A stretch of 64,000 bases of DNA from Candidatus Thorarchaeota archaeon (GTDB lineage: Archaea; Asgardarchaeota; Thorarchaeia; Thorarchaeales; Thorarchaeaceae): contig CP070761.1 of the NCBI GenBank assembly GCA_020348985.1, positions 2,433,087-2,497,086 of the forward strand, given 5' to 3'. The notes below the pieces were generated by a model that made no database searches, was not told the DNA's origin, and was given only the letters and a program-made list of their open reading frames with translations. A program made the position numbers and the translations under genes. Shown in pieces: positions 25,812-29,826 of this stretch (position 1 is the stretch's first letter; each line of letters begins with the position of its first letter).

Positions 25812-28148
25812 TTGGTGATAATTACTATGCAAGGGTTATTTGATACATTCCTGAATCAGATGACACTCTTCGAGCAAGCAATGATTCTGCTTGTCATTGG
25901 AGCAGCGATTCTAAGCCTTATCTACGCTTGGTGGCTGCGAAGGGGTGTACTTGTTCAGGACAAAGGGACAGAACAGATGCAAACTGTCTGGGAAGGAATT
26001 CGCGAGGGTGCTCTTTCCTATCTGAGCAGACAGTTGAGAAGCGTCTTGCCGATCCTCTTCTTTCTGATAATATTCCTTTATGCAAGCGTAGCAGTAGCAC
26101 CCCCTGAGCCACAGGCCGTCATTCTCTTCGGAGCTGATGCATTAATCATCATTGGGATTGGCCGTGCTATTGCCTTCATCTTGGGAGCGTCCTTCTCCCT
26201 TATGGTTGGCCAGCTTGGCATGCGAATAGCAGTCGAGTCGAGCGTTAGAGTCGCACAGGCGACCAGGGAAGGCGAAGACAGGTACAACCGTGCCTTGACG
26301 ATTGCATACAGGGGTGGAACCTACACAGGGATGCTTACCGATGGTCTAGGGCTGATTGGTGGTACGACCATCTTCATCATCTTCGGAACCGCGGCCCCTG
26401 ATGCCCTGCTTGGGTTCGGATTGGGAGGAACACTTCTTGCACTCTTCATGAGAGTGGGGGGAGGAATCTACACCAAGGCGGCCGATGTCGGTGCTGATCT
26501 TGTAGGTAAGATTGAGCAGGGTCTCCCTGAAGACGATCCAAGAAACGCCGCAGTAGTCGCAGACCTCGTTGGTGACAATGTCGGCGATTGCGCTGGAATG
26601 GCCGCAGATATCTTCGAGTCTTATGAAGTTACAATAGTATCTGCACTGATTATTGGTATCGCCATATATGCAGACCCCACACATTGGATTGTGGGCATGC
26701 CTGCATTGGCTGTCATAGTATTTCCACTGGCTGTAAGAGCAGTTGGTGTAATTTCATCAATGATTGGAACTGTGATGGTTCCCATTTGGCCTCGGCTTCT
26801 TAGAAAACGAGAAGTGTACGCCGAGAAGGCTATGTTTCTGTCTTACGAAGCATCAAGTCTATTCACAGGCATTGTTACTATGTTCCTGGCGTACTTCTAT
26901 GTAAACGATATTCGTCTAGCAATCCTTGTGATTGTTGGCGTATTGCTCGCCGTCTCGTTCAATCCGATTACCAGTTACTTTACTTCGCTTCAGAAGCCGC
27001 CTGTCCAAGAGATTGTGAAATCCGCTGATACTGGTCATGCAACTTTCATTCTGTCTGGCCTGGTTGCCGGCTACGAGTCGACCGTTGCGGCTCTCATTGC
27101 AATTGTGACAACCTTCGGAGTGGCCTATGTGCTGTTTGCAGTAGACGGTCTGATTTGGGTACTCTACGGAATTGCACTGATTGGTATAGGCATGCTTTCG
27201 CACACAGGTAACAATGTTGCAATGGACTCCTATGGTCCGATAAGCGACAATGCTGCTGGCATTGGAGAGCTTTCTCCCGGCGACTTTGAAGAGGAGTCGC
27301 AGAAGGTAATGGCTGAATTAGATGCAGTTGGAAACACAACCAAAGCCATCACCAAGGGTGTGGCGATTGCCTCAGCAGTGATTGCTGCAGTGAGCCTCTT
27401 TGACAGCTTTGTGATTGTAGCTGGCCTTGAAGAGATTGGCATCAGACTTGACAATCCACTTGTGTTTGCTGGAGTTCTACTGGGAGCTGCGCTGCCGTGG
27501 CTGTTCTCAGCATTGAACATCAAGGCTGTAACAAGAGCTGCAGGCGAGATGGTAAGAGAAGTTCGAAGGCAATTCAAGATACCTGGAATCCTTGAAGGAA
27601 CGGTAAAACCAGATTATGACCGAGCAGTAGGAATTTCAACCACCGCTGCTCAGAAGGAACTCATTGCGCTGGTCGCCATGACGGTTTCAATCCCGTTAAT
27701 GGTTGCGATTCTCTTCGGTGGTGACAACTTGGCACCGCTGGGTGGATTCCTTGGAGGTATCATCATCTCTGGTCAACTTCTGGCAGTCTTTATGTCCAAT
27801 AGTGGCGGAGCATGGGATAACGCCAAGAAAGCTATCGAGGAAGAAGAATGCGATCCCGAGAGAAACATGGGGAAGGGTTCCGAGCGCCACAAGTGCGGAG
27901 TTGTTGGAGATACCATCGGTGACCCACTAAAGGACACAGCAGGTCCAGCATTGAATCCTATGATCAAAGTTGTCAACTTGGTCAGTCTACTCCTGGCCCC
28001 GGTTCTGGTGACTTACCACTTTGGTTCAGGAATTGCGGTCGCTGGAATACCAATGGACCTCATTCTCGCGGGAATTGTCGGTCTACTTGCTTTGCTGACA
28101 TTCTGGGCTATCAGGAAGAGTCGCAAGCCAGCGGACTTTGGAGAATAG
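25812..28148 (+). CDS. hppA: Membrane-bound pyrophosphatase, K+-independent H+-PPase type
   Basis: GGGIYTKAADVGADLVGK, EDDPRN, DNVGD, GNTTKA (Lys marks K+-independent type), GDTIGDPLKD. Confidence 0.93.
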   Translation: MVIITMQGLFDTFLNQMTLFEQAMILLVIGAAILSLIYAWWLRRGVLVQDKGTEQMQTVWEGIREGALSYLSRQLRSVLPILFFLIIFLYASVAVAPPEPQAVILFGADALIIIGIGRAIAFILGASFSLMVGQLGMRIAVESSVRVAQATREGEDRYNRALTIAYRGGTYTGMLTDGLGLIGGTTIFIIFGTAAPDALLGFGLGGTLLALFMRVGGGIYTKAADVGADLVGKIEQGLPEDDPRNAAVVADLVGDNVGDCAGMAADIFESYEVTIVSALIIGIAIYADPTHWIVGMPALAVIVFPLAVRAVGVISSMIGTVMVPIWPRLLRKREVYAEKAMFLSYEASSLFTGIVTMFLAYFYVNDIRLAILVIVGVLLAVSFNPITSYFTSLQKPPVQEIVKSADTGHATFILSGLVAGYESTVAALIAIVTTFGVAYVLFAVDGLIWVLYGIALIGIGMLSHTGNNVAMDSYGPISDNAAGIGELSPGDFEEESQKVMAELDAVGNTTKAITKGVAIASAVIAAVSLFDSFVIVAGLEEIGIRLDNPLVFAGVLLGAALPWLFSALNIKAVTRAAGEMVREVRRQFKIPGILEGTVKPDYDRAVGISTTAAQKELIALVAMTVSIPLMVAILFGGDNLAPLGGFLGGIIISGQLLAVFMSNSGGAWDNAKKAIEEEECDPERNMGKGSERHKCGVVGDTIGDPLKDTAGPALNPMIKVVNLVSLLLAPVLVTYHFGSGIAVAGIPMDLILAGIVGLLALLTFWAIRKSRKPADFGE

Positions 28149-28175
28149 GATAGGACAGAGCGTATTGCTTTGAAT

Positions 28176-28210
28176 GGTGGCACGAAGTGTCACCATCCTT
28201 CCACTTTTTC
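28176..28210 (+). terminator. Hairpin plus pyrimidine tract after hppA
   Basis: GGTGGCAC-GAA-GTGTCACC followed by CCTTCCACTTTTTC. Confidence 0.45.
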
Positions 28211-28279
28211 ATCATAACAAGAACCATATGAACCAGATTAGCCTAGGCACTGAACAATAAGGTGACGCGGGACCTAGGC

Positions 28280-28630
28280 ATGAGCGAGCGAATGAGAGTT
28301 GGAGAACTGATTTTCGAATGCATCCAACGCGGCAACAAATCGGGCGGGTTGACAGGAGAGGCAGTCATCGCTATTGCTAAAATCATCCGAGATGAGATTC
28401 GTTACTACGATTCACCTGAGAGTAGACAAGAACGGAAATGGGACCACACCGTTTCACAAAGCCTCACTGATGTTTCTCAAGCCCTAGAAGAGATTTGGTC
28501 CAAGCAACCTCGTGGTCTTAGACTCCACCACATCACTCCTATCCGGGCTCATAGCTCTAAGGCAACTGCCCATGAGATACTCCACAAAACAAGAGCTGAG
28601 CTAGTGATTGAGCTCGATACGATCATCTAG
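28280..28630 (+). CDS. Hypothetical protein
   Basis: ORF of ~116 aa with plausible helical composition; no motif recognised. Confidence 0.55.
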   Translation: MSERMRVGELIFECIQRGNKSGGLTGEAVIAIAKIIRDEIRYYDSPESRQERKWDHTVSQSLTDVSQALEEIWSKQPRGLRLHHITPIRAHSSKATAHEILHKTRAELVIELDTII

Positions 28631-28656
28631 GCATGCATTTCGTCCTGTTGAAGTCA

Positions 28657-28791
28657 GGCTCAATAGAATTGATTGGGGGTTGAGCCCGAGCTTGGGAACA
28701 AAAGAGAAAGTAGGTAAATTCGCGTGGTTAGGAGGGGAGATATGTAGTAGGCTCCCAAGCCGGACTCCTACGACGAATTAAATCAATTCCT
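28657..28791 (-). ncRNA. Candidate structured (pseudoknotted) non-coding RNA
   Basis: Five complementary segment pairs of 6-9 bp within 135 nt, three extendable by G-U only on the minus strand. Confidence 0.4.
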
Positions 28792-28896
28792 AAATAAGGC
28801 TATTAGAAGGGGCAAAAGTCTGCGCGGTCTTTCTCTGAACATTGAGGAGCCAAAAAGAGAGTCAACTGATTTGACGGGGGGTGCCTGCATGGCACA

Positions 28897-29256
28897 CTAG
28901 TATCCCCACTCTTGCCCCAATCTTTGGCGATACCAACGCTGGCCACGTTTGGTAAGGGAGTACTTCCCGCTAATCTCTTGAAGTAGTCCCATCTGCACCA
29001 TACTCTGAAGGACCCCGAAGAGCTTGTCATCAGAAGCACCTGTTGTTTCGCGAAGCTTTGCGAAGCTCATCTTCCCATCTCGTCTTAACAGCTGCGCTAT
29101 GTCGAATTTTCCAACCGCTCTAGTTTCCTTGCGTGACACAATCTCGCCGCAGTTTGTGCAGATCAAGTCGCCTTTGAGATCGTCCCTGGCAACCTCTTGG
29201 CTACCGCATATGGGGCATGTGGCCTTTGAGAATCTCAATGAACGACGGTGTGACAT
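28897..29256 (-). CDS. TFIIB-type zinc ribbon fused to winged helix
   Basis: CPICGS..V..D...GDLICTNCGEIV; then wHTH ending GLLQEISGKYSLTKRG. Confidence 0.75.
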   Translation of the reverse strand: MSHRRSLRFSKATCPICGSQEVARDDLKGDLICTNCGEIVSRKETRAVGKFDIAQLLRRDGKMSFAKLRETTGASDDKLFGVLQSMVQMGLLQEISGKYSLTKRGQRWYRQRLGQEWGY

Positions 29257-29322
29257 CTTTCTTGCCTAATGAGAAGCCAAGCGAGTGTTGATAAAACTAG
29301 CGAAGCGGTGTCTGTTGGGTCT

Positions 29323-29826
29323 TCACTTGCTGGAGCCCAGCTCAGAAAAGAAGGTGTCATAGTCTATCTCAAATGGCACTCTCATTCCTGGTCGAACTTT
29401 CTTTGAGCCTTTGTCAACCTCAACATAACCTAGAGATGCGAGTTCCCTTAGGTCCGCACGCACGCCCTGTAAGCTCTTCTTTCTTAGTTCCCTGACTTGG
29501 TCAATTCGGACCCAGCCCCCCTCTTGATATGCAAGAGTGATTACAACGAGAAGCGTTGCAGCCAGGCGATCTGGCAGAGCTGAACCGTGGACTTCGGCGT
29601 CGGCTTCAACCACTGCGTCGAGATAGTATACATGATGAACTGGATTGTGACAAATCGCAAGGCCAACCGGTGTCAGTCTTCTGTGAAGTCCTGCGAGCTT
29701 TCGATAAAGCGGATGTCGTCCTGAGACTTCAGGAAGTCCCAATGCTTCTAGCATATCATCCACTGAAGCACCAATGGGGTCTCCTGTCCGGGTGAGGAGC
29801 CTGATGAGGATCCCAAACTCATTCAT
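29323..29826 (-). CDS. KITE (tandem winged-helix; Nse1/Nse3/ScpB-like) SMC accessory subunit
   Basis: WH-A ending L..RL..VGLAI..VYYL; WH-B ending LRELASLGYVE..RPGMRVPFEI; overlaps kleisin stop. Confidence 0.7.
   Translation of the reverse strand: MNEFGILIRLLTRTGDPIGASVDDMLEALGLPEVSGRHPLYRKLAGLHRRLTPVGLAICHNPVHHVYYLDAVVEADAEVHGSALPDRLAATLLVVITLAYQEGGWVRIDQVRELRKKSLQGVRADLRELASLGYVEVDKGSKKVRPGMRVPFEIDYDTFFSELGSSK

Follow-up and report, generated by a model that had tools for sequence, protein, structure and literature searches.

A candidate family of stand-alone small RNAs with a clamped, nearly invariant open loop in one family of Thorarchaeota

Small RNAs (sRNAs) of the RsaE/RoxS type in Firmicutes pair with the G-rich Shine-Dalgarno (SD) regions of many mRNAs through unpaired C-runs, and the constraint of having multiple targets keeps the seed invariant. 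Archaeal sRNAs whose loops are complementary to ribosome-binding sites (anti-RBS loops) are also known: sRNA154 and sRNA41 of Methanosarcina mazei are intergenic, have promoters of their own and form stable stem-loops, with an unpaired anti-RBS loop that is proposed to mask SD sites in trans (PMC5867862). The Ro60-bound Y RNAs, approximately 100 nt long, pair their two ends in a long stem that carries a large pyrimidine-rich loop and, optionally, further hairpins. The RNA described here resembles the two Methanosarcina RNAs in these respects and the Y RNAs in this general plan. It is encoded in a window of 64,000 nucleotides of a Candidatus Thorarchaeota archaeon (contig CP070761.1, positions 2,433,087 to 2,497,086; coordinates below are those of the window) and represents what appears to be a new family of stand-alone archaeal small RNA, its sole known home, so far, being one family of the Thorarchaeota. 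A search of the literature found no indexed paper containing its core sequence or describing Thorarchaeota sRNAs, and no regulatory or structured Asgard sRNA beyond rRNA, tRNA, RNase P and SRP.

The element, single-copy within the 3.16-Mb assembly, lies in an intergenic gap of 266 nt between two convergent open reading frames (ORFs), 28262-28630 on the plus strand and 28897-29256 on the minus strand. The former, convergent with the RNA, would encode 122 aa; it has no Pfam or NCBIfam match, and its counterpart is absent from beside the RNA at all of the relatives' loci that were compared: the plus-strand neighbour changes between genomes and the RNA stays. The latter encodes a protein of 119 aa and is the last gene of an SMC5/6-like operon, after the kleisin and KITE genes. 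The initial annotation saw in this gap, downstream of the SMC operon and on the same (minus) strand, a pseudoknotted RNA-like element of ~135 nt, assembled from five complementary pairs, belonging to no known family and conceivably a novel sRNA, a switch or a ribozyme. Its location and strand have held, all five pairs are present where they were placed, and an anti-SD-like C-rich motif to which it drew attention turns out to belong to an invariant core; its pseudoknot and closing stem have not survived comparison with relatives, and the interpretation stands only in part.

In place of the pseudoknotted architecture, conservation backs one terminal helix and an open, G-poor loop. The two arms of the helix, GGAGUCCGGCUUGGGAGC on the 5' side (28751-28768, minus strand) and GUUCCCAAGCUCGGGCUC on the 3' side (28682-28699, minus strand), are joined in the minimum free energy fold over 18 positions, with 17 pairs and one 1-nt bulge; the minus-strand 87-nt segment folds as this terminal helix alone (-26.8 kcal/mol, 58% of the ensemble, z = -3.34). 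The second of the five pairs, GCTTGGGA (28690-97) with TCCCAAGC (28753-60), is the centre of this helix, and conservation is seen for this pair only. Orthologs pair 15-18 bp from both ends, with a sequence that is wholly different from genus to genus and with no conserved bulge in the helix alignment. Compensatory changes on both sides are found in 15/15 modelled pairs among 37 distinct orthologs. In the same set 93.7% of paired cells are in fact paired, compared with 68% for shuffled partners and 22-55% after sliding them by 1-3 columns; the alignments are fitted to a covariance model and hence biased towards pairing, yet the helix is secure because of the slid controls and the number of pair types. 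An independent set of 37 distinct environmental sequences (91% paired, 15/15 pairs compensated) brings the RNA family to more than 70 distinct sequences. Conservation and covariation in relatives, which the initial annotation had named as what its proposal should stand or fall by, thus extend across the Thorarchaeota orthologs. (The covariance model was seeded from two collinear sequences with the helix set by hand, and rebuilt from 12 realigned orthologs; MAFFT alignment followed by RNAalifold yielded no structure, the stems having no sequence in common.)

The helix also discriminates between the strands. Its 536 cells contain 80 G.U pairs and 34 unpaired cells when read as the minus strand, 13 G.U pairs and 101 mismatches when read as the plus strand; the RNA is therefore on the minus strand. 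The fold of the same segment as the plus strand (z = -1.59) and the orientation of the promoter described below agree with that assignment. A functional element on the plus strand, either an SD sequence with an ATG-TAG mini-ORF or leader or a terminator hairpin shared by the convergent genes, is hardly credible. The resemblance of AGGAGGGGAGATATGTAG to a ribosome-binding site followed by a start-stop, and the placement of the element between convergent genes, would speak for it. The plus-strand AGGAGGGG-AGAT-ATG-TAG of the initial annotation is, however, the antisense of the invariant loop, its ATG is replaced by ATTG, TTTG or TACG in relatives, and no ORF is conserved in its stead; a terminator would not have a 51-nt loop with 26 invariant nt at its core, and, like the helix mismatches, the persistence of the RNA beside differing plus-strand neighbours tells against this reading.

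What becomes of the remaining four pairs? The outer "closing stem" (28666-74/28781-89) has z = -3.5 in this genome, and its existence here together with that of the other pairs is what could recommend an H-type pseudoknot of ~135 nt (28657-28791) serving as a riboswitch or self-cleaving ribozyme. This stem is absent from 17 orthologs (mean z = -0.2), including that of a relative in the same genus (z = +0.78); one of its arms falls between the TATA box and the inferred transcript start, the other past the 3' arm of the terminal helix. The two pairs that make the pseudoknot, TAGGAG (28729-34) with CTCCTA (28765-70) and AATTCG (28717-22) with CGAATT (28774-79), are not conserved either: complementarity reaches at most 6 and 5 nt here, and 3-5 nt, which is chance length, in orthologs. 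The 5' partners of the outer stem and of these two pairs are located within the spacer between TATA box and start or upstream of it, that of the second pseudoknot pair upstream of the inferred transcript start. Moreover, 2 G among 51 nt are too few for the loop to form the helices that a switch or ribozyme needs, Rfam contributes no ribozyme or riboswitch even at E = 10, no same-strand gene downstream of the RNA presents itself as a candidate for regulation, and what is conserved is one helix rather than a multi-helix or pseudoknotted core. The riboswitch or ribozyme is, in short, largely refuted by comparison and very improbable; the outer stem and pseudoknot pairs are, on the evidence of these alignments, specific to this genome and partly outside the predicted transcript. 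The fifth pair, GGCTCAA (28657-63) with TTGAGCC (28680-86), competes with the true helix. Its counterpart was sought in the same genus only, where one relative (L012) has a terminator-like hairpin, GGGGGCTCA-CG-TTGAGCCC, ~95 nt downstream of its RNA; that hairpin repeats the GGGCTCA of the RNA's 3' arm, and the competing hairpin formed here by TTGAGCC and GGCTCAA is similar to it.

The orthologs share a plan that, in the minus-strand sense, runs from a TATA box through a spacer of ~22-25 nt to the helix 5' arm and on to the large loop with its conserved block. In this genome the TATA box (TTATTTA, 28791-28797) is centred ~26 nt upstream of the first helix base, and a BRE-like element (CUAAUAG here, 28800-28806), recognized from its sequence, lies just upstream of it; many orthologs have a BRE of the CTCAAT type before the TATA box. 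The order of the two elements, BRE before TATA box in the minus-strand sense, fixes the way the promoter points. Of 18 orthologs, 12 have an all-A/T 8-mer whose centre lies 22-34 nt ahead of the helix, the remaining six (this genome among them) have an A/T 7-mer at that place, and in the opposite orientation an A/T box is found at that distance in 2/18. At the other end, all orthologs have a pyrimidine tract of the (A/U)ACCU..UUCUU type within ~20 nt of the helix 3' arm; here the corresponding pyrimidine-rich 3' tail (AACCCCCAAUCAAUUCUAUU..., 28655-28681, minus strand) is, by analogy with the ortholog tracts, a likely termination zone. We infer a transcript that starts at ~28768, ends in the pyrimidine tract after 28682 and is ~90-105 nt long. 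The features expected of a stand-alone archaeal sRNA, a BRE/TATA promoter of its own at the right distance and in the right orientation and a compensated structure on one strand, are both present, and that this is a real structured RNA gene, presumably transcribed from its own promoter on the minus strand, is highly probable. In many orthologs (e.g., L009, L010, L016, L017, L019, L020 and L023) a further motif, TGCA or ATGCAT, precedes the TATA box by 10-15 nt and may be an operator. In the window, ATGCA occurs at 28886-28890, in a small hairpin beside the stop codon of the zinc-ribbon gene (the 119-aa gene, considered below), and ATGCAT at 28634-28639.

The loop is where sequence, rather than pairing, is conserved. 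It comprises 51 unpaired nucleotides (28700-28750, minus strand; 19 C, 19 U, 11 A and 2 G) and, with only 2 G, cannot fold on itself. A BLAST search of 28640-28810 against 40 relatives yields matches in at least 17 genera of the same family, and the part that matches is confined to 28696-28744 (85-100% identity). The core, CCCCUCCUAACCACGCGAAU..ACCUAC, is nearly invariant in 14/16 genera, and CCCUCCUAACCACGCGAAU is exact in 30/37 distinct orthologs while their stems differ completely. Lineage-specific closed hairpins are inserted at three sites in the loop only, all between modules: before AUCUCC, between CCUCC and UAACC (30-90 nt, in three genera), and between AAUACCU and CCUAC. These insertion sites divide the loop into three modules: 1) module A, AUCUCCCCUCC (28731-28741), is C-rich and anti-SD-like, and its CCCCUCC is found in 35/37 distinct orthologs; 2) module B, UAACCACGCGAAU (28718-28730), is the most invariant part, exact in 32/37 and kept as well in the "type 2" paralogs of one genus; 3) module C, ACCUACUUUCUC (28704-28715), retains ACCUAC in 28/37. 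All three are on the minus strand, and in relatives modules B and C are 0-3 nt apart or have a hairpin inserted between them. GGAGAU or GGGG runs in several of the inserts are able to pair with module A, which shows that the C-run can serve as a pairing strand. In one genus the RNA is present in two or three copies. Its "type 2" paralogs (L056:529-630, L075:138-241, L076:65-165 and L073:292-391) have a TATA box of their own, an unrelated stem (GGAUUCGAUUCG.../...CGAAUCGAAUCC) and a loop reduced to AUCUCCCUCCUA(A)CCACGCGA; they are often 200-1200 nt from the main copy.

How widely is this RNA distributed? The covariance model places it in 67/86 genomes of one Thorarchaeota family, in 21/23 of the high-quality genomes and 14/16 genera (one of the two genera scored as lacking it does have the RNA, with a 90-nt insert), and in 0/124 genomes from 26 other families of the phylum. 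Scanning 185,579 species genomes for an exact 17-mer returned ~52 records titled Candidatus Thorarchaeota, Promethearchaeota, uncultured archaeon or archaeon; six matches in bacterial metagenome-assembled genomes score 15-21 bits, lack the helix and are ascribed to chance. The initial annotation had recognized no known family in the element, and an Rfam 15 cmscan of 28000-29500 on both strands, with E up to 10, bears this out: it gave two chance matches only, outside the element.

Might it nevertheless be a divergent member of a class already described: a C/D or H/ACA guide, a Y RNA, a vault-like or 6S-like RNA, or a circular RNA processed at a bulge-helix-bulge (BHB)? Its terminal stem and pyrimidine-rich loop are superficially like those of Y RNAs, and the loop could in principle guide modification. 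Such an assignment is very doubtful. For box C/D sRNAs, RUGAUGA is absent from the 87-nt RNA, as the RUGAUGA/CUGA boxes are from the transcript, and there is no excess complementarity to rRNA. For Y RNAs, PF05731 (Ro60/TROVE) is found in 0/26 genomes, with positive controls. For BHB processing, the helix is continuous save for its 1-nt bulge and has no 3-nt bulges 4 bp apart. RNase P and SRP RNAs, of which it might be a divergent form, are both present elsewhere in the family. As an rRNA guide it was rejected because duplexes of the core with the 16S and 23S rRNAs of two relatives are no better than those of shuffled sequences, and pairing with 5S, RNase P and SRP RNA is likewise no better than that of shuffles. 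(These rRNA comparisons used relatives because 16S and 23S were not recovered in G000, whose "single contig" is interrupted by 131 runs of N: no 16S gene is detected there with the Rfam 16S model, a scan for the 23S sarcin-loop motif finds nothing, and a motif scan locates only a 3'-terminal 16S stretch, ..GGATCACCTCCT, at C1:1651283.) One tRNA match deserves separate mention: the consensus core CGCGAAUACCUAC could form 13 bp with two tRNA-Leu of G000, across the variable arm and T stem: tRNA-Leu(GAG) at C1:448938-449025 and tRNA-Leu(CAG) at C1:2624498-2624585. It is judged to be chance; the RNA of this genome interrupts the stretch midway with UU, and in other lineages whole hairpins are inserted there.

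If the RNA acts in trans with its loop as the recognition surface, what would it recognize? We tentatively favour SD-type pairing, a choice that is still some way short of an even bet. The 5' and 3' ends of the RNA would pair as a helix of 17-18 bp that clamps the 51-nt loop open; the helix would be a stabilizing handle, its sequence free to drift so long as pairing is kept, and the loop, with AUCUCCCCUCC, UAACCACGCGAAU and ACCUAC, would be the working surface. Being C/U-rich, the loop could base-pair with purine-rich segments of mRNA, in particular SD-type GGAGG or GGGG sites, and such pairing would mask ribosome-binding sites, as for Methanosarcina sRNA154 and sRNA41. This reading is ranked first because of the use of GGAGG as an SD sequence, the 3' end of 16S rRNA and the precedent of archaeal anti-RBS loops. 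The 16S 3' end of this genome is GGAUCACCUCCU, ending ..CACCUCCU, so that the CCUCC of the loop copies its anti-SD; CCCCUCCU sits in the 51-nt open loop, which is the arrangement (an unpaired loop with an anti-SD) of an anti-RBS sRNA; and GGAGG peaks 12-14 nt before ATG in this genome, indicating that SD sites are in use. That GGAGG is carried by a minority of the genes here counts against the mechanism, as does the extent of conservation: invariance over 18-26 unpaired nt exceeds what one SD-masking seed needs.

Searches for targets, informative for complementarity longer than 10 nt, were uniformly negative. Within the genome, the 26-nt core is matched in trans at no more than 19/26, which is the chance level, and start codons have no near-perfect GGTTAGGAGGGGAGAT-type site. 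When the loop was paired in silico with 14,078 candidate translation-start regions, 897 duplexes came out at or below -20 kcal/mol, against 953-1602 for shuffled loops; and across 86 genomes the 12-mer complement GTGGTTAGGAGG occurs only 7 times away from the RNA locus, fewer than its reversed-pattern control.

Because of the long invariant stretch and the lack of targets found, a protein partner is almost as likely as SD-type pairing, if doubtful in its own right: the RNA would be the partner, scaffold or decoy of a sequence-specific protein, for which the neighbouring 119-aa protein is the candidate. The gene (28897-29256, minus strand) encodes a TFB-type zinc ribbon (Pfam PF08271; the TFIIB ribbon of PDB 1pft) followed by a MarR/PadR-like winged helix. 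An AF2 model (pLDDT 80.6) has a winged helix with a long C-terminal helix, and Foldseek returns weak matches (E ~0.01) to AspA, MarR, PadR and Sso10a and none at E <= 0.001. The C-terminal segment G105-Y119, rich in Arg, Trp and Tyr, is almost all invariant, with an invariant C-terminal RWYRQRLGQEWGY helix. (It is worth remarking that AspA, to which the fold weakly corresponds, is an archaeal centromere-binding protein, and that the gene is the last of an SMC5/6-like operon.) Full-length orthologs are found in this family and, at 47% identity, in one sister-family genome that was sampled; the rest of the phylum sample has none, and the named database homologs are nearly all labelled Thorarchaeota (67-82% identity).

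The RNA is downstream of this gene and on the same strand in 25/25 genomes compared and in 21/21 environmental contigs that carry both, at a distance of 125-145 nt in many and up to 1.65 kb elsewhere. One genome has its best-scoring RNA copy 8 kb off, with a weaker paralog 135 nt downstream of the zinc-ribbon gene. In the wide gaps, the inserted genes (ferredoxin-like, nitroreductase, DUF362) are mutually unrelated, and a hidden third partner between gene and RNA was discounted for that reason. Loop invariance over 18-26 nt with no detectable complementary RNA, closed hairpin inserts that keep the modules spatially adjacent, the constant and often close linkage, the restriction of both RNA and protein to Thorarchaeota, and the invariance of the protein's C-terminus all fit a protein partner. 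On the other side, the winged helix resembles DNA-binding proteins (AspA, MarR, PadR, Sso10a) and the RNA-binding SelB only weakly; the genes inserted between the two in several lineages allow that the linkage may be inherited gene order; and a sister-family genome (G025) has the protein with no such RNA detectable downstream of its ortholog. If RNA and protein do form a pair, its target could be RNA polymerase, modulated much as it is by 6S or 7SK, or the SMC5/6-like complex encoded next to it. The fully developed version of this proposal, in which RNA and 119-aa protein constitute an Asgard-specific RNP that acts on RNA polymerase or on the SMC5/6-like complex, or in which the core also serves a gene-specific TFB-like factor as an internal control element (compare eukaryotic Pol III genes), is unlikely.

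The resemblance of the neighbour's fold to DNA-binding proteins raises a different question: might the invariant 26 bp be mainly a DNA site (an integration target, or else an operator or loading site used by the winged-helix protein or the SMC5/6-like complex), with the transcribed hairpin secondary? Besides those weakly scoring nearest folds (AspA and DNA-binding regulators), the location at the end of the SMC operon and the varying gene content beside the RNA are compatible with such a site. It is nonetheless improbable: the G.U count (80 versus 13) shows selection on one RNA strand, the promoter is correctly placed and oriented, the inserts of 30-90 nt between CCUCC and UAACC in three genera would split the site, the core is non-palindromic and occurs once per genome, and the paralogs retain the core only within stem-loops that are themselves predicted to be transcribed.

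Whichever molecule reads it, the comparative support for this RNA is unusually clean (more than 70 sequences, every stem pair covarying, a conserved promoter), and the candidate is ready to be made an Rfam family and to be entered in the annotation of Thorarchaeota genomes. The question that it poses is a sharp one: which molecule recognizes a loop that is invariant, unpaired and poor in G, held by a stem whose sequence runs free? The organisms are uncultured, but the RNA keeps a fixed place after the TFB-like zinc-ribbon gene that closes an SMC5/6-like operon, and this supplies one concrete candidate for a partner in vitro.

Set against the systems with which this account began, the Thorarchaeota RNA is distinctive in several ways. 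With bacterial 6S and eukaryotic 7SK RNA it shares context only, that of an RNA linked to a protein with TFB's polymerase-docking zinc ribbon; it is half the size of 6S RNA and does not have a central bubble between two long helices, and the link to polymerase is a candidate by that context only. It departs from the Y RNAs in having no conserved bulged-C Ro site and no Rfam match, and its 26 examined genomes have no Ro60/TROVE. It has no sequence or structural homology to sRNA154 and sRNA41, is restricted to one family and found no target in the searches that were run; it consists of a single long terminal helix, and its invariant loop (18-26 nt) is much longer than theirs. The RsaE/RoxS-type RNAs, finally, are bacterial, unrelated in sequence, and distribute their C-runs over several short hairpins, where the Thorarchaeota RNA presents one clamped loop of 51 nt.
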